A DNA stretch of 59,390 bases, from IMG/VR virus record IMGVR_UViG_3300036784_000179, positions 1-59,390 of that record; one strand, given 5' to 3'. Both the position numbers and the translations under genes were made by a program. This document shows, piece by piece, positions 740 to 44,875 of the stretch (within the stretch, counting starts at the first letter, position 1; every line of letters starts with the position of its first letter). The notes under the pieces were generated by a model. The model was not told the DNA's origin, did no database searches, and saw nothing but the letters and a program-made list of their open reading frames with translations. This DNA is from a virus (Duplodnaviria > Caudoviricetes).

Positions 740-1285
740 GGTCCCCTTTCACGACAGTGCATTTCCTGCAGTGGCGGGATTGCTTTTGGCAGCGGACCAG
801 ATATCGCGCCAATAGCCGGTATCGGCCATTGGGGCGCCTAGTCGGGTGTCGATAATCCGCCGATGTCAAGCGGTTATTTTACTGCACCGACAATCCACAG
901 AGTTTTCCCCAGAAGGGCGACAAACGCGTGCCTCGACGCCGCGAAGATCACAAATACCACCCTCTTTAGAGGGGCATGTGATTATCACGTTTTGGGTTTG
1001 TTCGATCGCGGCGACAATTGGCGCCAAGACTAGAGATATCCTGGCATTTTGCTTACAACAAGGTTACGCCAACTTGACAGCCATCCTGGAACCCATTGAT
1101 TATACGAACGACAGCGAGCCCGCGGGGAATGTTAAAATATCGTGAAAAAACCGTGAAAAAAACCGCGTTGAGTATCTTTTGCGCACTGCAAAAATCTATC
1201 GCGCTTGACAACCGGCGCAGAACGCCCTGCCATAAAAGCGACATAAAACCCAAAAGCAGTTCCAGAACAGGCATGACCCCAGAAC
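740..1285. promoter_or_regulatory. AT-rich divergent promoter/control region
   Basis: Lower-GC gap between leftward replication operon and rightward xis/int operon; TTGACA hexamers near 1074 and 1205 (+) and 865 (-); palindrome GTGAT-T-ATCAC at 978-988. Confidence 0.6.
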
Positions 1286-1289
1286 AGAC

Positions 1290-1547
1290 ATGGCAGTCCC
1301 CCCGGAATTTACCGCCGAGGTGATCTTTGAGCAGGCGACGCGGTTAAAAAGCGCGCTCGCCGGCGCCGGTCTCTCGCCCGAGCTCTGCGCCACCCTCTTT
1401 GGTGCGGCTTACCTGCTGTCACTGCACTACCTATCTGACAAAACACGCGCCGCGGAGCTCGCCGAGTGTATGGACATGCTGGTCGACACCTGGATCGAGG
1501 CCGCCTCGCCCCCAGCAAATACGGACGGCGATGACAGCCCCCGATGA
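1290..1547 (+). CDS. Hypothetical protein
   Basis: 85-aa ORF, first of the rightward operon. Confidence 0.6.
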   Translation: MAVPPEFTAEVIFEQATRLKSALAGAGLSPELCATLFGAAYLLSLHYLSDKTRAAELAECMDMLVDTWIEAASPPANTDGDDSPR

Positions 1548-1752
1548 ACTCTCGGGCCGCCCTCTAGGGCTGGTCAGCGACGCCGATGTCGACACCATTG
1601 CGACCCGAGGCGATATCATGGCCGCGGTTCTCGCACTGGGAAACGCCATCGAACGGCTCGAGCGCGCACAATATCGGCTGATGGCGATGATCATCGGCCT
1701 CGCCATCAGCCTGATGGCACTGGCGGTGCTGTTGGGCCTGATCATGCGCTAA
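1531..1752 (+). CDS. Small coiled-coil protein with C-terminal TM helix (paralogue of 7105-7272)
   Basis: ATRGDI...ERLERA..RL followed by hydrophobic helix; start chosen at MTAPDE. Confidence 0.65.
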   Translation: MTAPDELSGRPLGLVSDADVDTIATRGDIMAAVLALGNAIERLERAQYRLMAMIIGLAISLMALAVLLGLIMR

Positions 1753-1770
1753 ACCACCGGGAGACCGCTC

Positions 1771-2064
1771 GTGAGCGAATTTGAAACCTTTCAAGCCTAT
1801 TTCCGCGAGCAAGCCGCCGACGAGCATCACCCCAGTGCCGGTGCCTTTGCGCTGGCTTATGCGGTGATGCGTCTGTCGCAGTCATTGGACGGACTGTCCA
1901 CGAGCTTTGCCCCAGAGGGGCTCGGCACCTTTAACGTCGATTATTTTCTGGTGCGTGTGGCCCGCCGGCTCGACGAGCTGTCCAAACAAATCGGTAGTCT
2001 CGACCCCCCCGAGGCCGCCGAATTGCTGCGCCGCCGGCCGGCGGGAAAGGGGCAGCGCAAATAA
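1771..2064 (+). CDS. Hypothetical protein
   Basis: 97-aa ORF, GGGAG RBS before GTG. Confidence 0.65.
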   Translation: MSEFETFQAYFREQAADEHHPSAGAFALAYAVMRLSQSLDGLSTSFAPEGLGTFNVDYFLVRVARRLDELSKQIGSLDPPEAAELLRRRPAGKGQRK

Positions 2065-2074
2065 GGAGGTTGAA

Positions 2075-2467
2075 GTGGCCGTACATTCCCCCCAAATTTG
2101 GACGGTCGAGGAGATCGCCGCGCGCTACAAATACACCACCCGGCACATCTTTGAGTTGATCCGCCGCCACAAATTGCCGGTGCTCGGCACGAAAACGCAG
2201 ATCCGCTTTGACGAGACCGCGGTCGCCGCTTTGGAGGAAGCCATTCGATGCCCCTCACCATCGTCCGACGACGAAATCGGGCCGGAGCCCTCACGATCTC
2301 GGGGTCGGTCGACGGGCAGCGGGTACAACGCCGTGCTGGATCGAATGACCCAAAGGTTGCAGCAAAAGAAGCCGCCCTCCTCGAAGCCGAGCTCCTCAAC
2401 CAACGATACCACGGCAAACGTCGTGGGGTTTGGAGTTTCGCGTTTGCCGCAGAACAGTACGAGCTAG
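2075..2467 (+). CDS. xis: Excisionase-like HTH protein overlapping the integrase 5' end
   Basis: AAGGAGG RBS before GTG 2075; WTVEEIAARYKYTTRHIFELIRRHKLP..G...IRF is an HTH_17/MerR-like xis signature; directly upstream of int. Confidence 0.8.
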   Translation: MAVHSPQIWTVEEIAARYKYTTRHIFELIRRHKLPVLGTKTQIRFDETAVAALEEAIRCPSPSSDDEIGPEPSRSRGRSTGSGYNAVLDRMTQRLQQKKPPSSKPSSSTNDTTANVVGFGVSRLPQNSTS

Positions 2468-3336
2468 CCACCGCACCGAGCAGTGCCACGGTCAAGCGGT
2501 TGGCCCGCTTGATCACGGCCGTCGGCGACACCCCGTTGCGCGAGATGACCCAAGAGACCTTGAACCGGTTGCAGCGCAAATTGTTGCGCCCCAACCCGGC
2601 ACCGGCGACGGTGTTGCGCGAGATCATCACCCCGGTGCGCGCGGTGGTCAATTATGCGGTCGAGCAGGGTGAGGCCGACCCGATCCGCTTGCGCTCGCCG
2701 CGGGTTCCCAAAGGCCGCACGCTCTATTTGTTGCCGCACGAGGCCCAGCGTCTGGTCGCTGCCGCCGCCCCGCATCTCAAACCCTTGTTGGTCTTTCTGT
2801 TGGGCACCGGGGCCAGGCTCAGCGAAGCGCTCGAGCTCGACTGGCGCGATGTCGGATTGAGCGAGGGCCGGGTCAGTCTACGCAAGACCAAAAACGGCCG
2901 GGAACGGCATGCCCATCTGCCGCCCCATGCGGTCGCCACCCTGGCCAATCTTAAAGACCGCGAGGGGCCGGTGTTTTGCTGGACCCGGCGCCGCGGCGGT
3001 GGCGAGTTGAGGCGCGCTTACGCCGCCGCGGCGCGGGCCGAGCGCGATGGCGGCGGCCAAATCAAACGCGCCTTTCAAGGTGCGGTGCGGCGCTCGGGGC
3101 TCGCTATTCCGGGGCTCAGCCCGCATGTATTGCGGCACACCTGGGCGAGCTGGCACTACGCGACCTACAAGGACCTGTTGCGATTGCAGATCGAGGGCAA
3201 TTGGTCGTCGATCAACCTCGTCGTGCGCTACGCTCATCTGTTGCCCGAGGGTCAAGAGGCGGCGATCGCGGCGTTTTGGAGCCATGGCAGCGAACGAGGT
3301 GACGAAACCCCGGTCGAGCGCCGGCAGACAGCCTGA
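2248..3336 (+). CDS. int: Tyrosine integrase
   Basis: TGARLSEAL (catalytic R), KTKNG, HVLRHTWASW (HxxR), GNWSS...VRYAH (catalytic Y); adjacent tRNA-derived attP. Confidence 0.95.
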   Translation: MPLTIVRRRNRAGALTISGSVDGQRVQRRAGSNDPKVAAKEAALLEAELLNQRYHGKRRGVWSFAFAAEQYELATAPSSATVKRLARLITAVGDTPLREMTQETLNRLQRKLLRPNPAPATVLREIITPVRAVVNYAVEQGEADPIRLRSPRVPKGRTLYLLPHEAQRLVAAAAPHLKPLLVFLLGTGARLSEALELDWRDVGLSEGRVSLRKTKNGRERHAHLPPHAVATLANLKDREGPVFCWTRRRGGGELRRAYAAAARAERDGGGQIKRAFQGAVRRSGLAIPGLSPHVLRHTWASWHYATYKDLLRLQIEGNWSSINLVVRYAHLLPEGQEAAIAAFWSHGSERGDETPVERRQTA

Positions 3337-3349
3337 TCGGGAGAACCCG

Positions 3350-3634
3350 ATGATCGACGATGATTTGCGGGAATTATTCCCCGAAGCCGAACAGGCGGGC
3401 GACAAGGTCCTGCAAGCGCTCAGAACAGGCAAAATTCACGCCTGGAAAGACGGCAAGCAGCTCTCGAAGCGTTTTTGGCGCGGCAAGGATCTGGCCGACC
3501 TGATGCGCAGCGGATGTAGCTTTAAACCGTCCGAAGTGATCGCGGCGTTTCCGCCGTCGGTGCGGCCGGGGCAACCGGTGGCGGCGCAGTTTGGCACAAA
3601 ATCCGTCCGTATCGTGCGGGGCGGCGGTGCGTGA
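3350..3634 (+). CDS. Hypothetical protein (cassette 1), 94 aa
   Basis: ATG and GGGAG RBS supplied by repeat copy 1; stop overlaps the start of repeat copy 2. Confidence 0.7.
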   Translation: MIDDDLRELFPEAEQAGDKVLQALRTGKIHAWKDGKQLSKRFWRGKDLADLMRSGCSFKPSEVIAAFPPSVRPGQPVAAQFGTKSVRIVRGGGA

Positions 3635-3681
3635 GGAAACCCCGGCCGAGCGCCGGCAGATGGCCTGATCGGGAGGAACAA

Positions 3682-3927
3682 ATGAAGTCGTATCCCAAGA
3701 AGCAGCTTCAGCCTGGTGACAAGGAGGCGCCGCTCAGTGGCACGCCGTTGAGCGAGTGGCCGATCCTCAAGCGGGCGCAGATCGCCGAGCTCAATTACCG
3801 CAATATTCGCACCGTCGAGGACCTCGCCGACTTGTCTGATCTGGCGGTGCAAAACCTCGGCCTCGGCGGCCAGATACTGCGAGCCCGCGCGTGCGCCTAT
3901 CTCGGCAGGCCTTGGCCACCAAATTGA
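3682..3927 (+). CDS. Truncated copy of an internal domain of late gene 34028-34801 (cassette 2), 81 aa
   Basis: KEAPLSGTPLSEWPILKRAQIAELNYRNIRTVEDL..LSDLAVQNLG shared; GGAGG RBS from repeat copy 2. Confidence 0.8.
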   Translation: MKSYPKKQLQPGDKEAPLSGTPLSEWPILKRAQIAELNYRNIRTVEDLADLSDLAVQNLGLGGQILRARACAYLGRPWPPN

Positions 3928-3938
3928 CTGGCGAAAAC
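3720..3938 (+). repeat. Long dispersed inverted repeat with 34340-34571
   Basis: 6 mismatches over the first 185 nt, then a net 13-nt deletion, then ~30 nt more identity. Confidence 0.95.
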
Positions 3939-3990
3939 CCGTGACGAGACCCCGGCCGAGCGCCGGCAGACAGCCTGATAGGAGGAACCG

Positions 3991-4161
3991 ATGATCGAAT
4001 GGTTGATGGTGGTGTATTTGATGGACACCCACGAGCCGACCGGCACCCGCCACGTCTTTCCCGACCAAGAGGCGTGCGAGAGCGCGCGGAAATACTGGCA
4101 AGACTGGCAAGCCCAGACGTCTGGAACCTACGCGATCTGCAAGCCTGTGACCAGACTGTGA
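3991..4161 (+). CDS. Small protein with hydrophobic N-terminus and two Cys (cassette 3), 56 aa, absent from the ORF track
   Basis: AGGAGG RBS; MIEWLMVVYLMDTHEPTGTRHVFPDQEACESARKYWQDWQAQTSGTYAICKPVTRL*. Confidence 0.75.
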   Translation: MIEWLMVVYLMDTHEPTGTRHVFPDQEACESARKYWQDWQAQTSGTYAICKPVTRL

Positions 4162-4166
4162 CCAGG
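4145..4166 (+). repeat. Putative integrase arm-type sites (left arm), 2 x 11 bp
   Basis: CTGTGACCAGA CTGTGACCAGG about 60 nt left of the att core. Confidence 0.75.
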
Positions 4167-4223
4167 CCCCGCCCGAAAGCCCCAAGCGCCTGATATTGCG
4201 TGCTAAAAACCACTAGGTTCGGG

Positions 4224-4271
4224 CCCTTGGTAAGGGAGAGGTCGTAGGTTCGATACCCACCGGCAGCACCA
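4224..4271 (+). tRNA. 3' half of tRNA-Thr(GGT) serving as attP core (not a full tRNA)
   Basis: CCCT-TGGTAA-GGGAG anticodon arm, AGGTC variable loop, GGTTCGA T-loop, acceptor strand CGGCAGC-A-CCA; no D-arm or 5' acceptor strand upstream. Confidence 0.9.
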
Positions 4272-4378
4272 GCCTAACCCCTCGAAAAATCGCAGGTTCT
4301 TCAAGATCTTAGACCATCCCGCCAACGACCGAGAGAAGCCTCGCTCGACAGATCAAAACGGCAACATACCGCCAAACC

Positions 4379-4411
4379 CCGTGACCATCCTGTGACCACG
4401 CTGTGACCGCT
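4379..4411 (+). repeat. Putative integrase arm-type sites (right arm), 3 x 11 bp
   Basis: CCGTGACCATC CTGTGACCACG CTGTGACCGCT, same motif as the left arm. Confidence 0.75.
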
Positions 4412-4480
4412 ACGGCAGGGCGGGCGAGTCCCCCGCCGCGTCTGTTCTTTAGTTGTTCTCATCCTCAGGGAGTGATCAAA

Positions 4481-5233
4481 ATGGAGTTTGATCCGCGCGA
4501 GATCATCGAGGGTGTGCCGATCCGCCGGGTGCGGGATTGCCTGACCGCCGGCCAGATCGGCGAATTTGACGCGGTCTACCTGCAAGCTTGGCTCGGGCTA
4601 AAGAGCAAGATCGCGGCCCAGCGCTGGGCGATCGCCGCCATGCAGCGCGGACTGATCGAGCCGGGCCACCGCCCCAAGGAGTGGCGGGTCGCCAGCCTTG
4701 GCAAGAGCCTGGCCAACGCGCGATTTCTACCGCGCCTCAACCGCGCCAAAGCCGAGCGGCTGATCAGCGAGCTCGTCGAGCGGATCCGGCTCAGCGCGAT
4801 CAATTGCGCGCGCGAAGGTTACATCGAGGAGGTCGCCGCCGTCGCGCTCTTTGGCAGCTGCTATGCTCTCGACGAGGCCGACAATTTTGGCGATGTCGAT
4901 GTGCTCTTGGCTTGTCGAAGGCTCGCCGAATTCGCCGACCACAAAAGGTTCGTCGCCCATTGCCAGGCTCTGTTTGATCACGACGGCCGCACCAGCCGCA
5001 ACATCGCCGATGAATATGCCTGGCCGTCCCTAAAGTTGCGCCGCGCGCTCAAGGCCCGCAACCCCTACATCTCGCTGCACAATGTGGAGACCGAAGAGCT
5101 GACCAAGGATCTCGACCGCGTCCGCATCGTCTATTTGTTGCCCGATGGCGTGCTGACCGATCCCTGGCGCTGTACGGGACAAGAGTTTCTTGGCTTGCTC
5201 AAGGTCTCTCTGGGGATTGACGTGTTCTACTAA
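4481..5233 (+). CDS. Nucleotidyltransferase-fold protein (pol-beta/MNT-like) with probable N-terminal winged helix
   Basis: VALFGS...FGDVDVLL motif (GS + DxD); GGGAG RBS before ATG 4481. Confidence 0.7.
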   Translation: MEFDPREIIEGVPIRRVRDCLTAGQIGEFDAVYLQAWLGLKSKIAAQRWAIAAMQRGLIEPGHRPKEWRVASLGKSLANARFLPRLNRAKAERLISELVERIRLSAINCAREGYIEEVAAVALFGSCYALDEADNFGDVDVLLACRRLAEFADHKRFVAHCQALFDHDGRTSRNIADEYAWPSLKLRRALKARNPYISLHNVETEELTKDLDRVRIVYLLPDGVLTDPWRCTGQEFLGLLKVSLGIDVFY

Positions 5234-5270
5234 TCCCGCAGATCACCCCGGCGCCACCATGATCGAGAAA

Positions 5271-5295
5271 GGCCGCGCCCCCGCGAGGCGCGGCC
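5271..5295. terminator. Hairpin between convergent genes
   Basis: GGCCGCGCC-N7-GGCGCGGCC; TTTCT follows on the minus strand. Confidence 0.5.
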
Positions 5296-5404
5296 CGGGA
5301 ACGTGCTTTTTAGGGGCGCCGGCGGCGCCCGCTGCGCCGCTCACGCGCCGAAGTGCCTACCGGGACCGGAGGCTCGGGCTCCGGCGGTGACCCCGGAGGC
5401 TCGG

Positions 5405-6079
5405 CTAAGGGGCCGGCTTAGGCTCCGGCACACCGCTCGGCGGCGGCTTGAGCGGATCTTCGATCAGAAACCAACAATCGCCATACCCAACGACGTTGAC
5501 GTAGATCAAAGCCTTGTTCCCCGTCGACGGCTGGTCTGGCGGCAGGTAGATCGGATGCGAAGGGGTCAGGCCATTGCCCGGCGGGGGTATCTCCTCACCA
5601 GGTGGAATGACGATCGGGTGCGCCGGCCCGCCGCCGGGGGCGATCGGGTGTGCGGGATATCCGGGTGACGGCCAGATTTCCACGGGCGGCAACACGATAG
5701 GGTGCGCCGGAACCCCCGGTGCAATCGCATCGGGCGGCAGCACGATCGGGTGCGCCGGATGCCCGGGTGACGGCCAAATTTCCGGCGGCAGATAGATTGG
5801 ATGCGCAGGTACGCCCGGAGCAATTGCCCCGGGCGGTATCACAATGGGATGCGCCGGAAAGACCGGCAGGTAAATCGGGTGCGCCGGTACGCCCGGGGCA
5901 ATTGCGTCGGGCGGTATTACAATGGGGTGCGCCGGCCCGCCGCCGGGGGCGATCGGGTGTGCGGGATGCCCGGGTGACGGCCAGATTTCCACGGGCGGCC
6001 CGCCCGGCATTGGACCGCCGCCGACCTCCAGACCCGTGTAAGTCATTGTCCCGATAATGGTTACCGGAATAGATGCCAT
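5405..6079 (-). CDS. Proline-rich PAHPI-repeat protein
   Basis: Ten P(A/S)HPIxxP repeats; AAGGA RBS. Confidence 0.85.
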   Translation of the reverse strand: MASIPVTIIGTMTYTGLEVGGGPMPGGPPVEIWPSPGHPAHPIAPGGGPAHPIVIPPDAIAPGVPAHPIYLPVFPAHPIVIPPGAIAPGVPAHPIYLPPEIWPSPGHPAHPIVLPPDAIAPGVPAHPIVLPPVEIWPSPGYPAHPIAPGGGPAHPIVIPPGEEIPPPGNGLTPSHPIYLPPDQPSTGNKALIYVNVVGYGDCWFLIEDPLKPPPSGVPEPKPAP

Positions 6080-6388
6080 TATTTCGTTTCCTTTTCACTG
6101 GGAAAGCGCGAGGCCCCTCGCGCGGAGTACTCCCAACCCAGGCACCCACAGGGGCCTGCAGGTGCCGCCCTACCCTCTGCCAGACGGGGACCCCCGCCGG
6201 GCATACCTCGGGTTCCAAAGAAATTTGGGAAAAACGTTGATCTTGCCGGTCGTGGTTTGGCTGGCGATGCGGGGCGCTGTCGTCCTGGTGACGCGCTAGA
6301 CAACCGCCGGCGAAATGGCGTAACCCAGGGTCAACGCGATCCTCGCGCGTGCATCCCTCGGTTACAACCGTTTCAAAGGCACACCCTG

Positions 6389-7066
6389 ATGAAAACCCCC
6401 CTCCTCGCCGGTGCCGCCGCAATCGGATTGCTCGCCGCCCCCACGGCACAGGCCGACCTGGCCTTGACCGTCAGCGACAACGGCGTACCAATCGCCGGTT
6501 GCGCCACCACCACCCCCTCACCGCTCTCGATCACCTGCTCAAATGCCAATTTTAGCGCAATCCAGGTTGTCTCGCAGGGTGTCCCGACCCTGCCTTCGCC
6601 CGATCTCGGGACGATCTCGATCTCGGCGACCGCCGGCCCATTGGCCGCCGCGCACGACCTCGATTTGAGGATTGTGCAGACCGGGCTCAGCGACTTTCCG
6701 GGCGGCCCATCATCGACCACCTTTGCGCAAAATTCGCTAATCGGCATTCCCGGGCCGGCGAGCTATCACATGATCTTTGACGGAGTCGACATCGCCGACG
6801 CGATCTTGCCGCGGAGCCTCGACCCGCAGACCGCCGGCCCGTTCCTGGTCAACCTCGCGGCGGTCTCAAGCGCCTTTACCGACAGCCAAGAGATCATCGC
6901 GACCTTTGGCCCGTCGCTGCAGACCCAGCAATTGCAGTCGAACGCGCAGTTTCAGGTCATCTCACCCGCGCCCGAGCCGACCTCGCTCGCACTTCTGGGG
7001 GCGGCACTCCTCGGCATGGGTTGGCTGACCCGGCGGCGCCGAGGTGCCGATCAAGCATCGTGGTGA
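6389..7066 (+). CDS. PEP-CTERM sorting-signal surface protein
   Basis: Signal peptide MKTPLLAGAAAIGLLAAPTAQA; C-terminal APEPTSLALLGAALLGMGWLTRRRR. Confidence 0.92.
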   Translation: MKTPLLAGAAAIGLLAAPTAQADLALTVSDNGVPIAGCATTTPSPLSITCSNANFSAIQVVSQGVPTLPSPDLGTISISATAGPLAAAHDLDLRIVQTGLSDFPGGPSSTTFAQNSLIGIPGPASYHMIFDGVDIADAILPRSLDPQTAGPFLVNLAAVSSAFTDSQEIIATFGPSLQTQQLQSNAQFQVISPAPEPTSLALLGAALLGMGWLTRRRRGADQASW

Positions 7067-14010: not shown

Positions 14011-16662
14011 TCAGGGTGACACATGGTAGCTGCCATCAGGGGCCATGTAGACCGGCTTGCCGGTTGCTTTCTGGCGTCTTCCGGGAAGCACCCGCGAGCC
14101 TTCCGGTATCCCCGGCGGCGGCGGCAGCGGTGCCGTCGCATAGGGCATGCCGGATGGGCTTGCTCCCGACCGCTCAACGCTCGAGGGTGCCCCTTGGATG
14201 CGCGCAATATCGGCGTCCGTCATGCCCGAATCCCTAAGGGACTGGATCGTCGCCGGCGACAGGCCAGGCACCACCGGCGGCGCCGAAGAGCCGGGCAACC
14301 CAGGAGCCGCCAGCGGTCCGCCGGGCATTGGCGCGGCCTGTGCTCCGCCTGGCGTGCCAGGCAGAGGGCCAGGCGGCGGGGGCTGAGGTGCGGCGGCAGG
14401 CTGAGGTGCGCGAGCGGCGGGCTGGACCGGAACAATGTCGCCCTTAGCGTTGCGCTGCATCGGGATCCCGGCAGCGTCGGAGAATGTCGCGCCGCGCGGG
14501 ATCAAACGCAAGACTTGGTCGGTGGCACCGGTATCGGCGGCCCCCTGGTGCCCCTCCTTGGCAAAAACCGGGCTCATTATTTGCGCCGCTCGGTAATAAT
14601 TGATCTCGGGATTTTGCTCATTAAAAGCAGCCTGAAAATCAGTCAACGGATGATAGTCAAGAGTGCGCTGATTGCGGTAATCGCTCGCCGATTTGTTAAA
14701 GTAGGCGACCCCCTGCTTGGAATTGTCGAGGGCTCGCTGCGCTTGCATGTTTACGGTGTTCTCAAACATCTTGATCGCATCTTTTGAGGTCTCGAGTGAC
14801 GGCAAGTTACTGAGAAATTCATTAAACAGCCCCACCCCCTGACCGCTGCCCGCCATTTGCGCCGCCGCCTGTTGCAACAACGTCTTGATCAGAATGTCGT
14901 GATTGGGTGCCGTGGTGCCGGTCAGCGCTTGCGCCGCCTCGTCGCTCATCCCCAGCGCCCTGAGCCAGCCCGAGACTTGGCCGGCAAGCGGGCCGAGCTT
15001 ACCCGTCGTCACCCCACCGAGAAGACCGAGAACCGCCTGGGTATTAGCCTGCAGCCGCTGCGCGTCGCGCGCGGCGGCCTGCAAATCGTTGACGCTTTTC
15101 TGATCGCTGACGATCTGACCATTGATCGAGGTCTCGCCGCCGGGCGGCAGATAGCGCGTCCCCGTCAACCCCGGCGGCAACCCCGGACCAGCCGGCGGCG
15201 GCGTGATCACCGCCGGTCCTTCGGCGGGATGCTGCACGACCGGCATACCCGGAATGGCAGGTGCCATACCCGGCACCCCACCGGGAGCAACCACACCCGC
15301 TGCCGCACCCGCGGGTGGAGGGGTTCCACCCGCACCGGGCAAAACCGCTCCACCCGCGCCGGAAGCCCCACCGGTCGGCGCCGTCGGCGCGGCCGTCCCC
15401 GGTGCCGGCACGCCCGTCGGCGCCGTCGTCGCTCCAGCCGGGAAACCGGCACCCGGCGGCTGTTGCAGAAACGGGTACTTACGCTGCAGGTCGAGAACTT
15501 GGTCCTTGGGGACCTTTAACTCGGCCTGGCCATAAGGCGTGTTGACATAGACCTCCGTGAGCTCACCGGAGGCGCGCGCGTGCGCCTGCAGCAATTCGTT
15601 GTATTCGGCGCGCTTGGGATCGAGCAGACCACCTGGCTGCGGCAGCCATTGGCTGGTGCCGTCGGGCAACTGATAGAGCATCTTGCCTTCTTGCAAATTC
15701 CTCAGCTGCTCCATTTGCGCCGGGATAGGGCGGCGGGCGAAGGTACCGAATATCTCGGCGTCCCGCTGGACCTGCGCCGGATCGAGCAACGGCACGGACC
15801 CTTTGGGAATACCCAAGGTTTCCGAGTCCGAGGTCACCATCGAGGGCGATGGCCGCGCCAAGGCTTGCTCCGGGGTCATGCCCGCCGGCAGCCCGACGAT
15901 CGCCTGCCCGTTGCCAACCGCCTCGAGCTGACTTTTTTCATCGTCGCTGAGCGCGGTCGGGGTTGCCTGCGGCGCCGGCCCCGCCGCCGCGGCCAGGTGC
16001 ATCAGCCCTTCCTGCTGCGAGCCGGGCGGGGCGCCGGGAGCACCGGCGGCGACCTGCCACTGACCACCGCCGGGGCCCGCCCACTCGAAATGCATCGGGT
16101 CCTTGCGGCCCTGCCAGTTGCCACCCCAGATCATATTGTGGCCTGCGGCGATCTCGGAGATGTTGGCCGGGAGATTGGTCTTGACGTCGCCGTGCGTCAT
16201 CGGGTTGTCGTTCGAATTGACGTCGATCGCATTGCCGTAAGCATGCTCAGACAGATCGTGGCCGCCGCGGATGTCGCGCAGGTTGTAGCCGGAACTGTCA
16301 TCGGCATTGGGCTTGTAGCCGGTCGCTTCAAGGTCGTTGAGAAAACCCTGAAAGTCGTTCGCCGCCACCTTGTTGACTTGAAAGCCCACACCCGAGGGCG
16401 ACTTGACCGTCGTCAGATTGGCGTCCTGCCAGCCCGGCTGACGCGGGTCACCGCCAAATATCTCGGGGTGCGCCTTGGCGTAATTCGCCCGGACCCCGTT
16501 CTGCGGTGATGGGTATATGTCCGCCGGTGCTACACCGGCGGGCGGCGCTGCCCCGGCGGCTGCAGAGGGTGGGCGCAAGAGATCGGCTGGGATCTCCAGA
16601 TCGCCACTGCCGATTTGCGCGAGAACACTCTGCTCGTCATCGCTCAACGCTGCTTCAGGCAC
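14011..16662 (-). CDS. Ejection protein with N-terminal M15-family peptidoglycan peptidase
   Basis: GYN.R.......LSEHAYGNAIDVN...WGG.W...DPMHFE Zn-peptidase motifs; long Pro-rich and helical body. Confidence 0.85.
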   Translation of the reverse strand: MPEAALSDDEQSVLAQIGSGDLEIPADLLRPPSAAAGAAPPAGVAPADIYPSPQNGVRANYAKAHPEIFGGDPRQPGWQDANLTTVKSPSGVGFQVNKVAANDFQGFLNDLEATGYKPNADDSSGYNLRDIRGGHDLSEHAYGNAIDVNSNDNPMTHGDVKTNLPANISEIAAGHNMIWGGNWQGRKDPMHFEWAGPGGGQWQVAAGAPGAPPGSQQEGLMHLAAAAGPAPQATPTALSDDEKSQLEAVGNGQAIVGLPAGMTPEQALARPSPSMVTSDSETLGIPKGSVPLLDPAQVQRDAEIFGTFARRPIPAQMEQLRNLQEGKMLYQLPDGTSQWLPQPGGLLDPKRAEYNELLQAHARASGELTEVYVNTPYGQAELKVPKDQVLDLQRKYPFLQQPPGAGFPAGATTAPTGVPAPGTAAPTAPTGGASGAGGAVLPGAGGTPPPAGAAAGVVAPGGVPGMAPAIPGMPVVQHPAEGPAVITPPPAGPGLPPGLTGTRYLPPGGETSINGQIVSDQKSVNDLQAAARDAQRLQANTQAVLGLLGGVTTGKLGPLAGQVSGWLRALGMSDEAAQALTGTTAPNHDILIKTLLQQAAAQMAGSGQGVGLFNEFLSNLPSLETSKDAIKMFENTVNMQAQRALDNSKQGVAYFNKSASDYRNQRTLDYHPLTDFQAAFNEQNPEINYYRAAQIMSPVFAKEGHQGAADTGATDQVLRLIPRGATFSDAAGIPMQRNAKGDIVPVQPAARAPQPAAAPQPPPPGPLPGTPGGAQAAPMPGGPLAAPGLPGSSAPPVVPGLSPATIQSLRDSGMTDADIARIQGAPSSVERSGASPSGMPYATAPLPPPPGIPEGSRVLPGRRQKATGKPVYMAPDGSYHVSP

Positions 16663-23736: not shown

Positions 23737-25446
23737 TTAATCCGGCTGCACGTCGATCGCCACCCACCGGCCATTGCATCGGCCATAGACCCGGCTGTCT
23801 TGCGGCGCGTCCTCGATCCCGGCTCGTGTCGGCCCGGCTCGGCGGGTGACAAAATAGACGGGCAACGGGTTTGTGATGCTCGGCGGGTACCAGCCCTGCA
23901 CATTCGGGGGATCGCCGGCGCGCTGTATGATCGGGCCGAAGACATTGTCCGGATCGGGATACAGCGCGGGGGCAAGATTGACCGAACCCAACCCGATTGC
24001 CGGCGCAAAGACAGTGTCCGGATCGGAATACAGACCAGGGGCCAGGACGAGAGCGCCGGGGCCGACGGCAACCACCGGCGCAAAGACATTGTCCGGATCG
24101 GGGTACAGACCGGGGGCCAGATTGACCAACCCCCGCCCGATCGCCGGCGCAAAGACATTGTCCGGATCGGGGTACAGACCGGGAGCCAGATTGACCACAC
24201 CACCGCTGACGACCGGGGCATAGACATTATCCGGATCGGGATACAGACCGGGAGCCAGACCGAGAGGGCCCGGGCCGACAACAACCACCGGCGCAAAGAC
24301 ATTATCCGGATCGGGGTACAGACCGGGAGCCAGATTGACCAAACCCAGCCCGATTGCCGGCGCAAAGACAGTATCCGGATCGGGATACAGCCCGGGAGCC
24401 AGATTGGCCACACCACCGCCGATGACCGGGGCATAGACAGTATCCGGATCGGGATACAGCGCCGGGGCGAGATTGCCGGCAGCCGCACCCCCCAATACCA
24501 AGCGGCGGGTTTTACCCAGGGCGACGCGCCGGATGATGACGCCGGTTGATGGCGTGACCACACCACCGCCGATGACCGGGGCATAGATATTATCCGGATC
24601 GGGATAAAGCGCGGGCGCGAGATTGCCGGCACCCGGTCCCGCACCCGCCAATACCAAGCGGCGGGTTTTGCCCAGGGCGGTGCGCCGGATGATGATGCCG
24701 GTTGATGGCGTGACCACACCACCGCCGATAACCGGGGCATAGACATTATCCGGATCGGGATACAGCGCGGGGGCGAGATTGTCGGCAGCTGGAGCTAATG
24801 TGAACTGAATAAAGTATGCTGGCGTTGCCAGTGGGGAGGCCGGATAATTGATATTGAGGGTATTGTTGCCGGCCGGATGGATTGCTGCATTGTTATCAAA
24901 AATGCCGCTTATACCGAAAGTATCTTCGACCCGTAAGACTGTGCCAACCCCCGGGGTGGCTGCAGTAGTTCCAGTGACCACCCAAGCGTAGGCGAGATCC
25001 CAACAGTTATCGGCTATCGACGTAATCGTGATCGCCGCGCTGGCAGGACCGACGGGCTGATAGGTGACTTGGGAATGGTCTACCGGCAGAGATTGCGAGA
25101 CGCCTTGGTACTCGCTGACTACGACTCCTATGTAATGAGAAGTTGCTGCATTGACGACGACATTGTGACTGCCCGCGGCCGTATTGCCGAGAGGCAATGC
25201 ATAAGCATAGGTAAACCGGCCGCCTGCTCCAGAGGTAGTATTATTCGCCTTGGCAATGAGAGTAGCCGATACACCATTATAGGTAACTGACGTGATATCG
25301 TCAGCGCCCCCGGTAATATTGTCTCCAAAAATACCAATGACCAGAAAGCCATTGGTATCGGCACCTCGCGAATATGCTGCGGTATACGAGTTGGTGGTGC
25401 CCCCGTTATTTCCGAGGGCTGCCGCACCGACAAAAGCGATCGCCAT
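23737..25446 (-). CDS. Fibre-like protein: beta-sandwich head, ten LAPxLYPDPD repeats, C-terminal foldon-like motif
   Basis: MAIAFV N-domain; repeats; GIEDAPQDSRVYGRCNGRWVAI resembles the T4 fibritin foldon. Confidence 0.8.
   Translation of the reverse strand: MAIAFVGAAALGNNGGTTNSYTAAYSRGADTNGFLVIGIFGDNITGGADDITSVTYNGVSATLIAKANNTTSGAGGRFTYAYALPLGNTAAGSHNVVVNAATSHYIGVVVSEYQGVSQSLPVDHSQVTYQPVGPASAAITITSIADNCWDLAYAWVVTGTTAATPGVGTVLRVEDTFGISGIFDNNAAIHPAGNNTLNINYPASPLATPAYFIQFTLAPAADNLAPALYPDPDNVYAPVIGGGVVTPSTGIIIRRTALGKTRRLVLAGAGPGAGNLAPALYPDPDNIYAPVIGGGVVTPSTGVIIRRVALGKTRRLVLGGAAAGNLAPALYPDPDTVYAPVIGGGVANLAPGLYPDPDTVFAPAIGLGLVNLAPGLYPDPDNVFAPVVVVGPGPLGLAPGLYPDPDNVYAPVVSGGVVNLAPGLYPDPDNVFAPAIGRGLVNLAPGLYPDPDNVFAPVVAVGPGALVLAPGLYSDPDTVFAPAIGLGSVNLAPALYPDPDNVFGPIIQRAGDPPNVQGWYPPSITNPLPVYFVTRRAGPTRAGIEDAPQDSRVYGRCNGRWVAIDVQPD
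23930..24782 (-). repeat. Intragenic repeat, 10 copies of NLAP(A/G)LYPDPD(N/T)V(F/Y)AP, mostly 69-75 nt period
   Basis: Recurring TCCGGATCGGG(A/G)TACAG on the plus strand. Confidence 0.95.
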
Positions 25447-33752: not shown

Positions 33753-34028
33753 TTAACCCTGCTGCCCGCCGATCGCCACCCACTGACCATTGCGCCGGGC
33801 ATAGACCCGGCCATCCTGCGGTGCCTCGTCGATCCCGGCTTGCCGCACCTCCGGCTCGCCCGGCTGCTGTTCCGTGGTCGCCGGACCGCTGACGACGGCG
33901 ACCGCCAACGGATTGGCGGTGGTCGGCGGGTACCAGCCCTGGACATTGGGCGGCGGTCCGGCGACCTGGACCACCGGCACCGGATTGTTTAGCGACCAGG
34001 GTCCGCCCACAACACTGCGCCCGCTCAT
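33753..34028 (-). CDS. Small protein with C-terminal foldon-like motif
   Basis: PPNVQGWYPP and GIDEAPQDGRVYARRNGQWVAI shared with the end of 23737-25446. Confidence 0.75.
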   Translation of the reverse strand: MSGRSVVGGPWSLNNPVPVVQVAGPPPNVQGWYPPTTANPLAVAVVSGPATTEQQPGEPEVRQAGIDEAPQDGRVYARRNGQWVAIGGQQG

Positions 34029-34801
34029 CAGCAGGCCTCCTGGCCAAGCTGGAGCGGTGCGCCATCCTCGACCCGCGGCATGCGCAATTCGCGCGGCGGT
34101 GCCATCGCGGCAAACTCGTCGAGTGCCGAGACCACCGGGGCGCCGACGGTGAGCGCTCCCGAAAAGTTCGCCGCCGTCGCCGCCTTGGCGATCTCGACCG
34201 GGTCGTGCAACGCCGGGATATAGGCTGGTAGCTGCGTCTGCTGGCGTTGATACTCGACCGCGCGGGTCATCTGCAAGAGCTGCTGGCCGAGTGCGTCGAC
34301 CTGGTTTTCCAGGGTCGAGATGCGCAGCCGCAAGGCGTCGTTCTCGCCAGTCAATTTGGTGGCCAAGGCCTCGCGCTCGGCCTCGTCGAGATAGGCGCGC
34401 GCGCGGGCTCGCAGCATCTGGCCGCCCATGCCGAGGTTTTGCACCGCCAGATCAGACAAGTCGCCGAGGTCCTCGACGGTGCGGATATTGCGGTAATTGA
34501 GCTCGGCGATCTGCGCCCGCTTGAGGATCGGCCACTCGCTCAACGGCGTGCCACTGAGCGGCGCCTCCTTGCCGGCCTTAAACGCGGCGTAAAGCTCGGG
34601 CCAGCGCTCGGCATGCCCCTCGTTGACCCGCTCGACCAGGATCGTGCCCGAGCCGGGGATAAAGATTTTGACAAAATCAACATCGCGAAAGATGTCGCGC
34701 CCGGCCTTGACCGAGGCAAAACCGTCGCGCTCGGCGTCGGTGTAAAATTCGGCGCGGGTCTGCCGCGCCGGCCCGTCATAGCTTCGGCTATAGCCCAGCA
34801 T
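34028..34801 (-). CDS. Late-region protein with HhH-like domain and coiled coil
   Basis: GAGGAG RBS; FVKI.IPG...RWP..YAAFK.G....GTPL.EWP...I.TVE.L..LSD. Confidence 0.8.
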   Translation of the reverse strand: MLGYSRSYDGPARQTRAEFYTDAERDGFASVKAGRDIFRDVDFVKIFIPGSGTILVERVNEGHAERWPELYAAFKAGKEAPLSGTPLSEWPILKRAQIAELNYRNIRTVEDLGDLSDLAVQNLGMGGQMLRARARAYLDEAEREALATKLTGENDALRLRISTLENQVDALGQQLLQMTRAVEYQRQQTQLPAYIPALHDPVEIAKAATAANFSGALTVGAPVVSALDEFAAMAPPRELRMPRVEDGAPLQLGQEAC

Positions 34802-36234: not shown

Positions 36235-36747
36235 CTAGTTCACAACCGGGCGCGAGATTTGCACATTGACCGTGGCGTCACCCGCCAGCGCGGCCCCGTT
36301 CACCACCGACCCGGTCAGGGCCCCCGCGGTCGCCGCCCCGCCAGCGCTCGAGGCGACCTGACCACCGGTCGCCGAGACCCCGACCGCGGCCGCGAGCGCG
36401 ATCGCCGCCCCGCTGGTCTTGGCGATCAGGGCATTGCCGCTGATCTGAAACCAGCCAAACTGACCCGCACCGATCGCCGCCATCGCGACCGCCACCGGCG
36501 AGCCGCCTTTGGCGCCGGTCGCCGCCAGGGCGGTCGCCGGGGTCAATTGGTTGTAGGTCACCAGCGAGCCCACCACCGTGTTGGCCACCCCCGGCAGATA
36601 AATAAACTCGCCGCCGCCGCCATTGACGCCCAAAGCCGGGTCGACGCCGTGCGCGAGCAAGCCCGGGTAGGCCGGCGAGCGCGGAAAAGTATCGACCTGG
36701 CGCATCGCTGGCAAACCGATCAGATCGTCTTGAAACGCCCAAGCCAT
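36235..36747 (-). CDS. Capsid decoration/cement protein
   Basis: Directly after MCP; GEFIYL.GVA.T..G..V.Y...PVAVAM.A....Q.GW.QI.G. Confidence 0.8.
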   Translation of the reverse strand: MAWAFQDDLIGLPAMRQVDTFPRSPAYPGLLAHGVDPALGVNGGGGEFIYLPGVANTVVGSLVTYNQLTPATALAATGAKGGSPVAVAMAAIGAGQFGWFQISGNALIAKTSGAAIALAAAVGVSATGGQVASSAGGAATAGALTGSVVNGAALAGDATVNVQISRPVVN

Positions 36748-36809: not shown

Positions 36810-37841
36810 CTAGTTGATCAGCACGCCTTGCAAAAACGCGTTAGACATGGTCATGTTGCCGGCCCATCCGACAAGTTTGACCATCGCGTCTTGATTGACG
36901 GTAAATCGGTCAGGATTGAGCGGCGTCATGTTGCGCTCGCGATGTGGTCTTAGAAATATATAATCTGTATTCAGAAAATACATATGGTTTGACGGCGCAC
37001 CCGATAAGGTTGCCCAGGTGATGCCGCCACCAATCGGCCCCCCGGTGCCACCCGCGACCCCCTGAAAACCACCATCGAATACGACATCGGCATCCATGAA
37101 TTTGAGCGACTGAAAACCAGCAACACCCTCGCCTGGGCTAGTAATACGTTGTATAGCTTGCAATGACTCCCAATAAAATGTAAAGTAGGCGTTATCAGCG
37201 ATAATTAAATCTGGTCGATCTGTACCACGCACTTGGTTGAGCCATTGCCTATTCATCATGGTTTGCATCGTGGCAGTACCTGCGGTGAGCCCGGCCGCAG
37301 TAAACGAACCAATATAGGCGCGCCAGAACGGCCACAGTCCGCGATCGATACCGCCGACCACTCCCGAGGTCTCGACATCGGCGACCAGCAACTGCAGACC
37401 GCCGATCTGCTTGCCGCCGTCGAGCGTGCCATTGCCGTAGCAGTCGCCCGAGATGCCGTTGGTCATCGTCCGTTCGGCGTTGCCGATGCGGCTTTCGAGC
37501 AGGTCGATCATGCGCTCGACCCCGCTGTTCTGCAATTCCTCGAGACCGCTGATCGAGACCGCCACCGCAGCCTGCGCCCACGGGTATTGAGCCGCAGTAA
37601 ACACATCGGAGGGTGAAAGATTGAGGACGTCGTATCCTGAATATCTCTTGTAAGTGCCGTTCTCCGAGTATTCGAGCTCTTGGACAATTGCTTGCCCACC
37701 GTCGACCGGCTTGACTTTGTTGCGCTGGCTGAGACGGGCGAGGATTGCGTTGTTTTTGGTGACGTTGTCGGCGAGCTTGCGCGACCGGCTAAACAAGGTG
37801 GTGGTCGTGATTTCACCCCAGTTTGGATTTGGCGAGGGCAT
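36810..37841 (-). CDS. Major capsid protein
   Basis: 343 aa after scaffold; TTT...R...LADNV...NA.L..L...GG..I...LEY..N....YSGYD.L...YFLNT.YI...GN.T.SN...QG.L. Confidence 0.92.
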   Translation of the reverse strand: MPSPNPNWGEITTTTLFSRSRKLADNVTKNNAILARLSQRNKVKPVDGGQAIVQELEYSENGTYKRYSGYDVLNLSPSDVFTAAQYPWAQAAVAVSISGLEELQNSGVERMIDLLESRIGNAERTMTNGISGDCYGNGTLDGGKQIGGLQLLVADVETSGVVGGIDRGLWPFWRAYIGSFTAAGLTAGTATMQTMMNRQWLNQVRGTDRPDLIIADNAYFTFYWESLQAIQRITSPGEGVAGFQSLKFMDADVVFDGGFQGVAGGTGGPIGGGITWATLSGAPSNHMYFLNTDYIFLRPHRERNMTPLNPDRFTVNQDAMVKLVGWAGNMTMSNAFLQGVLIN

Positions 37842-41141: not shown

Positions 41142-42005
41142 TCACACCATCCCGCCGAGATCGCGTGACAAGAGATGGGTCGCGCGCGCCTGTTCCAATG
41201 CCGCGCGCTGCTGGATCTCCTGACCCTCCTGGTTGAGCTCGGCGACGCGCAACGCGCCGTCCTGCTGGATCTTGCGGGTGTCGGTCTGCGCCTCGATGTA
41301 GGCCTTCATTAGTTCGACCGAGTTTTTCTGCTGCTGCGCCTGGACCTTGGCGGCGTCGATCGCCTGGTCGCCTTGCGCGGTTTTTGCCTCGACCATCAAT
41401 TCCGCCGGCGACTTGCCGCCGCCGCCCTTTTGCTGCTGCCCATCCGGCGGGGTCGGCGGCGACTGGGCGAGGATCCGGAATGCTTGCTCAAACACCGGTT
41501 CGAGACCACGCGCCGAGGGAAACGCCCGCACCCCAAACATGACCAACGCCGCGGCCAGCGGTGCCACCGCCGGGTTTTGCTGAACTTCGGGGATGATCAT
41601 CTGCAGCATTGGCATGATTGCCTGGAGAAACTCGCTGCGCGCGGCTTTTTCGGCCTGCTCGTCGGGCGCCACCGTCGAATCGGCCTCGATGTCGATCTTG
41701 TAGCCGGTCGAGACATCGTGGCGGAGCAGGTGGCAGCCGCCGAGGAACTCGGTGCGCCGCCGTGTGGTTTCGGCATCCCAAGCGGCTTTTTGCTGGCGCC
41801 ACTGGGCAAACGCCGGATTTAGCATCATCCCCGGCGGCACCATGCCAAAAGGCGCCCCCCCGGTCACCGAACCCGGCGGTGGGCCGGGCCGTCCCAGGGC
41901 AGGCGGCCCGGCCATCCCCGATGCGGGGCTCGGTCCCGCCGTCCCCCCCGGCGGCATCGGGCTGCCGCCCGGAAAGCCGATCACGTTGCTACGCTGTTCG
42001 GACAC
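41142..42005 (-). CDS. Portal protein, C-terminal part (separate ORF)
   Basis: LLR.D...Y.IDIEADST...DEQAEK..R.EFL motif and Gln-rich coiled-coil barrel typical of portal C-termini; AAGGA RBS before GTG. Confidence 0.7.
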   Translation of the reverse strand: MSEQRSNVIGFPGGSPMPPGGTAGPSPASGMAGPPALGRPGPPPGSVTGGAPFGMVPPGMMLNPAFAQWRQQKAAWDAETTRRRTEFLGGCHLLRHDVSTGYKIDIEADSTVAPDEQAEKAARSEFLQAIMPMLQMIIPEVQQNPAVAPLAAALVMFGVRAFPSARGLEPVFEQAFRILAQSPPTPPDGQQQKGGGGKSPAELMVEAKTAQGDQAIDAAKVQAQQQKNSVELMKAYIEAQTDTRKIQQDGALRVAELNQEGQEIQQRAALEQARATHLLSRDLGGMV

Positions 42006-42080
42006 GGCTAAATCCTTTCGGCCATGGCCTTACACCCCTCACCAATCCAGGCGGCTCGGCGCAAACATCGCCAAGCCCAA

Positions 42081-44231: not shown

Positions 44232-44296
44232 CGGCCCTCCCGTCCGCGGCTTGCGATTTCAGGCATATGGCCGTACATAACGGCAGAGGGGTGCCC

Positions 44297-44599
44297 ATGA
44301 ACGAGAACAAGTTCGTCAACGCGGTCTTTCAGGTCGAGCAGCTGGTCGGCCGCTTTTCCCGCTCGCCGACCCGACAACGCCAGGTGGTGACCAGAGCACT
44401 CGCCGACCTGATCGCCACCCTGCCTTTTGAGGAGCATCCCAGCTTTATCGCCGCGGTCGTCAGCGAGCTCGTGCTGTTCAGCCAGATCAGAACCATCGAG
44501 GACAACGACATCGAGCGCGATATCGACCGGCTCGACGAACTCGAAGAAGATCTCGCCGCCGCGAGCCTGGCGCTCATCAAACCCTCCGGGGAGGCCTGA
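44297..44599 (+). CDS. Hypothetical protein (moron)
   Basis: AGAGGGG RBS before MNENKF; opposite strand to flanks. Confidence 0.7.
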   Translation: MNENKFVNAVFQVEQLVGRFSRSPTRQRQVVTRALADLIATLPFEEHPSFIAAVVSELVLFSQIRTIEDNDIERDIDRLDELEEDLAAASLALIKPSGEA

Positions 44600-44621
44600 G
44601 TTCCTAGGAGCGACAAAGACC

Positions 44622-44864
44622 ATGACGGGCACCGAATTGCGCGCCTTCCGCAAGCGATTGGGCGTCTGCTTTGCGGCGCTCGCACTGATGTGCTCCCTAC
44701 CGTTTCTTGCCCCATGGGGTAAGTACGCAGAGAACGACACGCTATATTTCTACCGCTGGAATAATGGTTTTACGATCCGAGTCTTGCACTGTGGCGTGAT
44801 GATCCACTGGGAAGATGGACTCCGCGTCCACCCGCTCGATCCGTTGTGCTATTTCCATGATTGA
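44622..44864 (+). CDS. Hypothetical protein (moron)
   Basis: AGGAG RBS; begins like an HTH helix 1 (MTGTELRAFRKRLG) then becomes hydrophobic. Confidence 0.55.
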   Translation: MTGTELRAFRKRLGVCFAALALMCSLPFLAPWGKYAENDTLYFYRWNNGFTIRVLHCGVMIHWEDGLRVHPLDPLCYFHD

Positions 44865-44875
44865 GTGACAGCAGG

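Follow-up and report, generated by a model that had tools for sequence, protein, structure and literature searches.

Our analysis revealed that one of three small open reading frames (ORFs) lying between the integrase gene and the probable phage attachment site (attP) of a Caudoviricetes soil phage is a recent, inverted partial copy of one of the phage's own late genes. The phage is represented by the IMG/VR record IMGVR_UViG_3300036784_000179, the whole of which (59,390 bp) was analysed and is referred to below as the window. The three ORFs, here called cassettes 1 to 3, are encoded on the plus strand (3350-3634, 94 aa; 3682-3927, 81 aa; 3991-4161, 56 aa) co-directionally with the tyrosine integrase gene (2248-3336, plus strand, 362 aa), and each of them is preceded by a 55-nt linker copied from the 3' end of that gene. 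The linker copies (repeat family D6) are located on the plus strand at 3299-3353, 3631-3685 and 3941-3995, are 80-85% alike over about 55 nt, and in all of them TGA occurs in two frames and a purine-rich ribosome site precedes an ATG by 5-6 nt. Specifically, copy 1 contains the last 12 codons and the TGA stop of the integrase gene (conservation of the protein stops near residue 351), followed by GGGAG and an ATG, while copy 2 supplies GGGAGG and, 5 nt downstream, the ATG of cassette 2. The region between integrase and attP is a well-known cargo slot of temperate phages.

Cassette 2 and the late gene that it resembles, referred to here as the donor (34028-34801, minus strand, 257 aa), form an inverted pair whose limits were confirmed to the base. 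The initial annotation had described 3720-3938 as matching the reverse complement of 34340-34571, with 6 mismatches in 185 nt, a net 13-nt loss and an end of homology 2 nt before linker copy 3, and all of this holds. A BLAST search with 3682-3938 against the record gave a second location at E 1.7e-93. Arm 1 of the copy (3720-3904, plus strand) is 97% complementary to 34387-34571 over 185 nt, and its six mismatches are found at 3807, 3827, 3862, 3864, 3876 and 3892 (cassette/donor letters T/C, C/G, C/A, C/G, A/G and T/C), leaving a longest identical run of 87 nt (3720-3806). Arm 2 (3907-3938, plus strand) corresponds to 34340-34371 over 32 nt at 97%, with a single mismatch at 3935. The stretch separating the arms is 2 nt long (GC) in the cassette and 15 nt long in the donor. 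This net loss of 13 nt is most readily explained by two separate deletions, one of 12 nt between a pair of GAGGCC direct repeats and one of 1 nt; a contig of the donor aligned to the cassette shows exactly these two insertions (12 nt and 1 nt). The copied donor segment (34340-34571, minus strand) comprises about 232 nt, that is codons 78 to about 154, and 30.5 kb lie between the inverted arms. The last homologous position is 3938 and linker copy 3 begins at 3941, which leaves a gap of 2 nt. Microhomology at the edges of the copy amounts to at most 1 nt on the left and to a loose GACG on the right. The first part of the cassette, a leader at 3682-3719 on the plus strand, is not donor-derived and had no other window match better than 10 nt in a blastn-short search. 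Since the next-longest other inverted pair in the window measures only 48 nt at 77%, the pair of donor and cassette is far beyond chance.

The cassette 2 ORF consists of 13 leader codons, 61 codons in the donor frame, six frameshifted codons and a stop (3925-3927) located 11 nt before the end of homology; arm 2 is out of frame. It had been proposed that the donor frame is kept behind a new 13-codon start and that the deletion shifts the frame and stops the protein before the coiled coil, and the ORF at 3682-3927 bears out both points, the stop lying six codons past the deletion. Antisense control of the donor by cassette 2 was considered and rejected, as the plus strand of the cassette has the sense of the donor mRNA.

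The donor belongs to the Mx8 p50 / phrog_20268 family (E 1e-26, profile positions 22-178 of 227) and encodes an N-terminal beta/alpha domain, a helix-hairpin-helix-type domain, a long coiled coil and a C-terminal tail. Relatives in cultured phages are Mx8 p50 and proteins of Bradyrhizobium, Stenotrophomonas, Ruegeria and Rhizobium phages (8 records, all below 60% identity). Within the late module the donor comes at least two genes after that of the major capsid protein, and this position is conserved: in Mx8 and the Bradyrhizobium phage the p50-like gene follows the capsid gene and a second structural gene, and a relative from the virus records (L005) keeps the order decoration protein, 383-aa ORF, donor and 91-aa ORF. 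At E <= 0.001 we found 58 family proteins, donor included, and all of the 37 full-length members picked from them for alignment possess the middle domain, together with an N-terminal domain and a coiled coil. Within this domain G84, L87, W90, E110, D117, G126 and A134 are invariant and M125 is nearly so (90% or more). Cassette 2, for its part, matches the family profile at E 9.6e-11 over positions 87-150 of 227 and covers donor residues 78 to about 142, a stretch that corresponds to the middle domain and includes neither the N-terminal domain nor the coiled coil. It also lies between integrase and attP, on the strand opposite to the late module. Whereas the donor is a full member of the family, cassette 2 is therefore a fragment of a member and not a member itself, since it has neither the full architecture nor the position in the late module, and M125 is lost from the domain that it retains.

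The AlphaFold2 model of the donor (predicted local distance difference test, pLDDT, 84.2) has strands over residues 16-58, short helices over 95-123 and a long helix over 127-189. Residues 84-145 were compared by VIA-align with the NusA AR1 domain (1u9l_B; Z 7.9, root-mean-square deviation, rmsd, 1.9 over 61 residues) and with the N-domain of RAD51C (8gj9_B; Z 7.4, rmsd 1.8 over 57), both with Z values under 8, a range where a match may be a common arrangement. Together these models point to a helix-hairpin-helix-type fold of the middle domain. The truncation of cassette 2 to a single domain, as first annotated, agrees with a model of the 81-aa product computed with the family alignment (pLDDT 81.4, and at least 90 over residues 21-70), in which the same helices appear at residues 31-39, 45-49, 53-59 and 63-74 and leader and tail are of low confidence; the product is accordingly modelled, and predicted to fold, as a helix-hairpin-helix-type domain. 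Pfam gave no match to helix-hairpin-helix families above the curated cut-off, the only ones being the sub-threshold SAM_EPH (E 0.023, 14.9 bits, cut-off 27) and RAD51D_N (E 0.085, 13.5 bits, cut-off 27.3). A PDB sequence search with the donor returned coiled-coil noise only (best E 0.018), and Foldseek found no PDB structure at E <= 0.001. Eleven BFVD models did match at E <= 0.001, all from uncultured phages, of which ten are named 'Uncharacterized protein' and one 'PI-PLC Y-box domain-containing protein'. All Atlas clusters of the donor are labelled 'hypothetical protein', NCBIfam contributed just a sub-threshold HpaR row, and a literature search on Mx8 p50 found nothing. Several shorter family members end in basic GRP-containing tails, and from these tails and the modelled fold it is a reasonable guess, and only a guess, that p50-like proteins may bind DNA.

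The copy is far closer to the donor than the donor is to any sampled relative. Donor and copy are 97% identical, compared to 82-84% DNA identity between the donor and its three nearest sampled relatives (about 83% for the nearest), and the copy is recent in this sense, as the initial annotation had held. With the three relatives as outgroups, the changes on the branch of the copy are a synonymous change at I106, M125L (2 nt), M129I, R135C, the change at 3935 and the 12-nt and 1-nt deletions, and A113G is the only change on the branch of the donor. From these polarised changes and the difference between 97% and 82-84% identity we infer that the cassette copy is the derived one and younger than the split from the nearest relative. 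The direction from donor to cassette also follows from the presence of the middle domain in all aligned family members and from the conserved synteny of the donor. The copy has changed faster than the donor, mostly in amino acids and with loss of the nearly invariant M125. Its 61 codons hold 5 nucleotide changes at a ratio of about 1.5 synonymous to 3.5 non-synonymous, and the corresponding ratios between the donor and the relatives are 22:14, 13:12 and 14.5:11.5.

No domain-only ORF was recovered elsewhere among the sequences examined. A second copy of the donor gene was absent from all three related virus records at E <= 1, each of which holds exactly one, and the integrase of this phage is missing from all three. 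A search for relatives of near length to the 81-aa protein (5.8 billion clusters) returned only the protein itself among 2 candidates, as a singleton cluster. A search with the domain profile gave 21 other proteins of 84-142 aa among 312 candidates, and none of the 14 examined consists of the domain alone: they keep either the coiled coil and the native C-terminus or the N-domain. They are mostly encoded on contigs below 2 kb and therefore look like cut gene calls. In the titles and abstracts searched we found no phage described as having a cassette made of a truncated copy of one of its own late-gene domains, so that in the searches made a cargo ORF built from the phage's own late-gene domain has not been described.

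The two other cassettes are of a different kind. Cassette 1 encodes a small protein (GC content at third codon positions, GC3, 0.71) with relatives of 88 and 100 aa (E 5e-5 and 3e-4, among 1.84 billion representatives), and because these relatives are of the same size its sequence identifies it as a whole small gene and not a fragment; it had no Pfam, PHROG, PADLOC or NCBIfam match. Cassette 3 (GC3 0.79) is an orphan with a best Atlas score of 0.87, below the 0.9 mark. Neither of the two had a tblastn match at E <= 1 in 50,697 phage records, related viral loci were not found for either, and both are without paralogue in the window. Only cassette 2, one of three, is a phage-gene fragment. The idea that the array is a protein-level memory of related phages finds no footing here, with cassette 1 a whole gene, cassette 3 an orphan and neither having a paralogue in the window. 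PADLOC, whose library holds described systems only, gave 0 families at E <= 0.1 for the three cassette proteins and the donor. An origin of the array by tandem duplication was rejected, the three units being alike only in roughly 55 nt.

As an independent assembly check we used Logan contigs, which were built with another assembler and drop rare forms, from four soil runs. Run X1 may be the source sample and run X2 belongs to another study. A third soil study, run X3, yielded a contig of 323 nt that resembles 3355-3630 at 96% (11 differences) and has 47 further letters that do not align to the window; cassette 1 may also occur in another setting.

The linker appears to be private to this phage. 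Its 21-nt core (with up to 3 mismatches) occurs in the window in the three copies and at one 3-mismatch site at 33190. The linker had 0 matches in viral contigs and 10 in metagenomes, all of them chance matches and none with common flanks. The copies do not fold better than shuffled sequences (z -1.18, +1.03 and +0.28), and only a 5-bp hairpin is visible. A scan of 1000-5500 detected two promoter-like sites (1074 and 2651) and four terminator-like sites, all outside the repeats; promoter-like or terminator-like sites were absent from the linker repeats, and no promoter-like site was found within or near the cassettes.

The array is bounded by a generic phage integrase (PF00589, E 5.3e-20; phrog_1, E 9.3e-41, ending at residue 351), for which NCBIfam gave sub-threshold generic tyrosine-recombinase matches only. 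Relatives of this integrase were not found in viral contigs, and the best one in genome contigs is 29% identical, so that these searches provided no related integrase-attP arrays for comparison. One related phage does have an integrase, which is a different one and has no comparable linker repeats beside it. On the other side of the array, 4147-4408 is probably attP, composed of a core common to a host tRNA-like gene and of arm-type sites. The probable core (4224-4271, 48 nt, plus strand) is common to host DNA and by eye has a tRNA-like 3' end, GGTTCGATACC ... CACCA. In all four soil runs many contigs (summed depth 18-147) matched just this stretch and diverged on both sides of it. Two GTGACC motifs 11 nt apart (4147-4163, plus strand) presumably serve as arm-type sites of the P arm and overlap the 3' end of cassette 3, and three more at the same spacing of 11 nt (4381-4408, plus strand) would be those of the P' arm. 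ARAGORN called 0 tRNA genes at the core, and Rfam returned nothing at E <= 1 over 3000-4600 and chance-level rows only at E <= 10 over 4170-4290.

Several known systems share parts of this organization. Cargo genes between integrase and attP (morons) are likewise small, lineage-specific ORFs, co-directional with the integrase gene and absent from close relatives. Here, however, one of the ORFs derives by truncation from a late gene of the phage itself instead of being foreign cargo, and every unit is preceded by a private linker of 55 nt taken from the 3' end of the integrase gene. Dedrick et al. reportedly described prophage-encoded defence genes of actinophages in 2017. In the way they seem to work, the linker units are most like the cassettes formed by promoter early stem-loop (PeSL) elements of T4-type phages, which are described as a strong early promoter with a terminator stem-loop, present many times per genome and across phages (PMC2839356, PMC4122927). 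In both cases small, non-essential ORFs of a plastic region lie between short conserved motifs, and recombination between these motifs could lead to gain, loss or replacement of the ORFs. The ORFs flanked by repeats in our phage are small, variable and absent from relatives. Unlike PeSL elements, the linker has neither a sigma-70-like promoter nor a terminator stem-loop and no significant fold but carries a stop, a ribosome site and a start, and it was found three times in one phage and nowhere else searched. The linker thus fails the promoter and terminator test that defines the PeSL family. A tyrosine recombinase beside an array of short ORFs with a repeated element also recalls integrons. 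This assignment was rejected on three of three tests, as the integrase is not of the IntI type (TIGR02249, 38.6 bits, cut-off 265; PRK15417, 32.8 bits, cut-off 435) but a generic phage integrase with its own attP, the repeats are not attC-like folding imperfect palindromes, and the integrase gene is co-directional with the array instead of divergent with attI and a promoter.

Two further systems resemble the inverted pair itself. The G segment of Mu, the C segment of P1 and shufflons rely on short sites and a dedicated invertase to invert kb-scale segments and swap C-termini productively. They share with our phage inverted repeats within a virion gene and a second partial copy, but here 30.5 kb separate the arms, neither arm adjoins an invertase gene and inversion would yield a broken late operon. 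Template and variable repeat pairs of diversity-generating retroelements also comprise two near-identical copies, one of them in a gene of the structural module; in the present case, in contrast, mismatches are not limited to the adenines of a single copy, and indels occur in one of the two. Pfam and PHROG scans, which took in about 30 of the window's ORFs, detected no reverse transcriptase among these.

The record is a metagenome assembly, and a chimeric join could have put a strain variant of the late gene in the integrase region. The contigs leave some room for this, as they follow a bridging rule of 31 letters and the 87-nt identical run is not bridgeable by 31-letter words, so that they cannot link the left flank to the cassette-specific letters. 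Such an artefact is nevertheless hardly credible to us, because a second assembler took the same path in X1, where the contigs 2200-3749, 3720-3861 and 3832-5300 show 0 differences each and the last of them includes all cassette-specific letters from 3862 on as well as the deletion and continues into unique right-hand sequence. The left junction is also present in X2, in a contig (3143-3749, 0 differences) with the leader and 30 nt of homology, one letter below the bridging rule. Furthermore, the depth of 17.4 over 3720-3861 in X1, between one and two times the flank depth of 11-12, fits two copies, and the copy has private changes and indels that are not in the donor. X2 had no contigs on 3968-4175 and none with the cassette variant after 3861, which with about 70% of the run covered proves nothing. 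It did contain a contig with the donor flanks and the donor's 12+1 nt that has 5 differences from the cassette and carries cassette letters at 3807 and 3827, and this pattern could be due to strain variation, a conversion tract or contig simplification. A conversion tract would be expected if the copy were a substrate for recombination, either as a silent archive that patches the donor by gene conversion or as one half of an inverted pair acting as a switch of about 30 kb, and a perfect run of 87 nt in 185 nt at 97% is enough for homologous recombination. We still regard such a role as very unlikely. Bubble-popping during contig building explains the X2 pattern equally well, only 3 residues of variation are on offer, and there is no invertase beside either arm. 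If it occurred, inversion would leave the donor truncated behind its domain and would separate the late genes further downstream from their operon, placing them behind the integrase. The initial annotation had suggested that the roughly 30 kb between the arms might invert, but no strand-changing joint was seen in the contigs of the four runs, though contigs cannot show rare forms. The neighbours of the donor are collinear with those in relative L005, and the arrangement in the window is therefore the canonical one.

What remains to be weighed is whether cassette 2 does anything for the phage, and here our preferred reading, which we consider about an even call, is that of a young chimeric ORF that arose by illegitimate recombination and then came under relaxed constraint. 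A donor piece of about 232 nt coding for just the helix-hairpin-helix-type domain would have been copied, in inverted orientation, into the cargo slot between integrase and attP, by illegitimate recombination or template switching in view of the near absence of microhomology at both edges. An older cassette probably lost its body to this piece and would have kept its first 13 codons as the leader, and the stop, ribosome-binding site and ATG of the 55-nt linker would have turned the fragment into an in-frame ORF of 81 aa. Afterwards the copy would have taken most of the changes, namely three amino-acid replacements, the 12-nt deletion by slippage and the 1-nt frameshift, and since most changes fall on the copy we read them as a sign of relaxed constraint, with cassette 2 as a by-product or at most a nascent gene. 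We accordingly do not read it as an established exclusion gene, and we read the inverted 185-nt pair as a liability rather than a switch. Several points weigh against this reading. The copied piece matches a whole fold unit neatly, and chance leaves such domain edges unexplained; the join is in frame (chance 1/3) and placed 5 nt behind a strong GGGAGG site; and the left junction recurs letter for letter in X2, the second soil study, which argues that the lineage persists and spreads. Neither the contrast in synonymous and non-synonymous changes (binomial P about 0.1, a hand estimate) nor the asymmetry of six against one between the branches (two-sided P about 0.13, an estimate) is significant. 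Within a G-h-G hairpin M125L and M129I count as conservative, and the product is still modelled with confidence. Two of the three replaced residues are moreover the only methionines in the segment of 61 codons, a coincidence put at about 0.002 by post hoc hand arithmetic, and these replacements could hint at selection. The same points bear on the possibility that cassette 2 is a functional moron, whose free 81-aa domain, made in the lysogen from an integrase-side transcript, would act as a competitive decoy and disturb virion assembly or DNA handling of superinfecting relatives, with the replacements tuning the choice of partner. In its favour are the intact ORF with its strong ribosome site from the linker, the complete fold unit (pLDDT 90 or more), the classical cargo position at the prophage end beside integrase and attP, the junction in two studies and the replacement of both methionines. 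Prophage genes that are expressed in lysogens and block other phages are known in actinophages (PMC6426606). We nevertheless hold this role to be possible but doubtful, because there is no promoter-like site within or near the cassettes, the searches run assigned the donor family no function or partner, and neither a domain-only relative among the short proteins examined nor a match to a defence family was found. The loss of M125 and the fact that the other two cassettes are not fragments point in the same direction. The dominant-negative effect that was originally envisaged is not supported, since the copy is without the coiled coil, the likely oligomerisation part, and could not poison an oligomer in the usual dominant-negative way; at most it would be a competitive decoy for the ligand of the domain. 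A more elaborate form of this idea, in which the decoy is self-derived and the linker is a capture device, seems improbable to us. The 81-aa domain would soak up the partner, DNA or a virion or packaging protein, of the p50-like proteins of incoming relatives, M125L, M129I and R135C would spare the phage's own assembly, and the linker would make any DNA landing between integrase and attP an expressed ORF.

If cassette 2 is indeed a by-product, it offers a clean snapshot of a phage minting a new small ORF, in which donor, edges and decay can still be read, at the cost of an inverted 185-nt repeat spanning half the genome. If on the other hand it acts as a decoy, temperate phages would have a simple route to superinfection exclusion by minting exclusion genes from their own parts. 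The case also is a warning for annotation, as late-gene fragments can turn up as small ORFs next to integrases, and it indicates that the widespread, unnamed p50-like family has a separable middle domain.

The remainder of the window is organized with the lysogeny end on the plus strand and the late module on the minus strand. The record has a completeness rating of 99% and a G+C content of 63%. It is classed as linear and has a terminal direct repeat of 175 nt with 1 mismatch (1-175 and 59216-59390), and the genome probably forms a closed circle of about 59.2 kb. The late module includes the large terminase (47913-50117), portal pieces, the major capsid protein (36810-37841; phrog_9953, E 4.8e-113) and a decoration-like protein (36235-36747), all on the minus strand, followed on the same strand by a 78-aa and a 383-aa ORF, the donor gene and fibre-like genes. 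A weak match to an excisionase-type helix-turn-helix protein (E 5.8e-4, below cut-off) was obtained at the lysogeny end within 1907-2467 on the plus strand.

A second, older case of domain sharing within the genome was observed between 23737-25446 and 33753-34028 (minus strand), where the C-terminal 60 or so residues of a repeat-rich, fibre-like ORF of 569 aa resemble the 91-aa ORF just downstream of the donor. At the DNA level the repeats of families D8 and D11 show 82% and 74% identity, and the shared part has a weak fibritin-C-like match. Two separate minus-strand ORFs in region 41142-46645 match the portal family phrog_12082 (715 positions), ORF 44876-46645 at positions 14-474 and ORF 41142-42005 at positions 527-711; they are separated by a 716-aa ORF (42081-44231) without PHROG or Pfam match, and the portal gene may be split or interrupted by an insertion. 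An 883-aa ORF (14011-16662, minus strand) contains an endolysin-like domain at residues 71-233 (phrog_1768, E 1.1e-18), which suggests that it probably encodes a virion-borne wall-degrading protein. Downstream of the array, a 224-aa ORF (5405-6079, minus strand) without Pfam match has proline-rich repeats of the PAHPI(V/Y)LPP type (DNA families D4, D7 and D9), and a 269-aa ORF (6257-7066, plus strand), a cell-surface cargo gene, ends in a PEP-CTERM sorting motif (E 7.8e-5, above cut-off). Finally, just upstream of ORF 10781-11449, six head-to-tail copies of the 21-nt unit CCGCACAGGCGGTGCGTCAAT form an iteron-like or operator-like array at 10594-10743.

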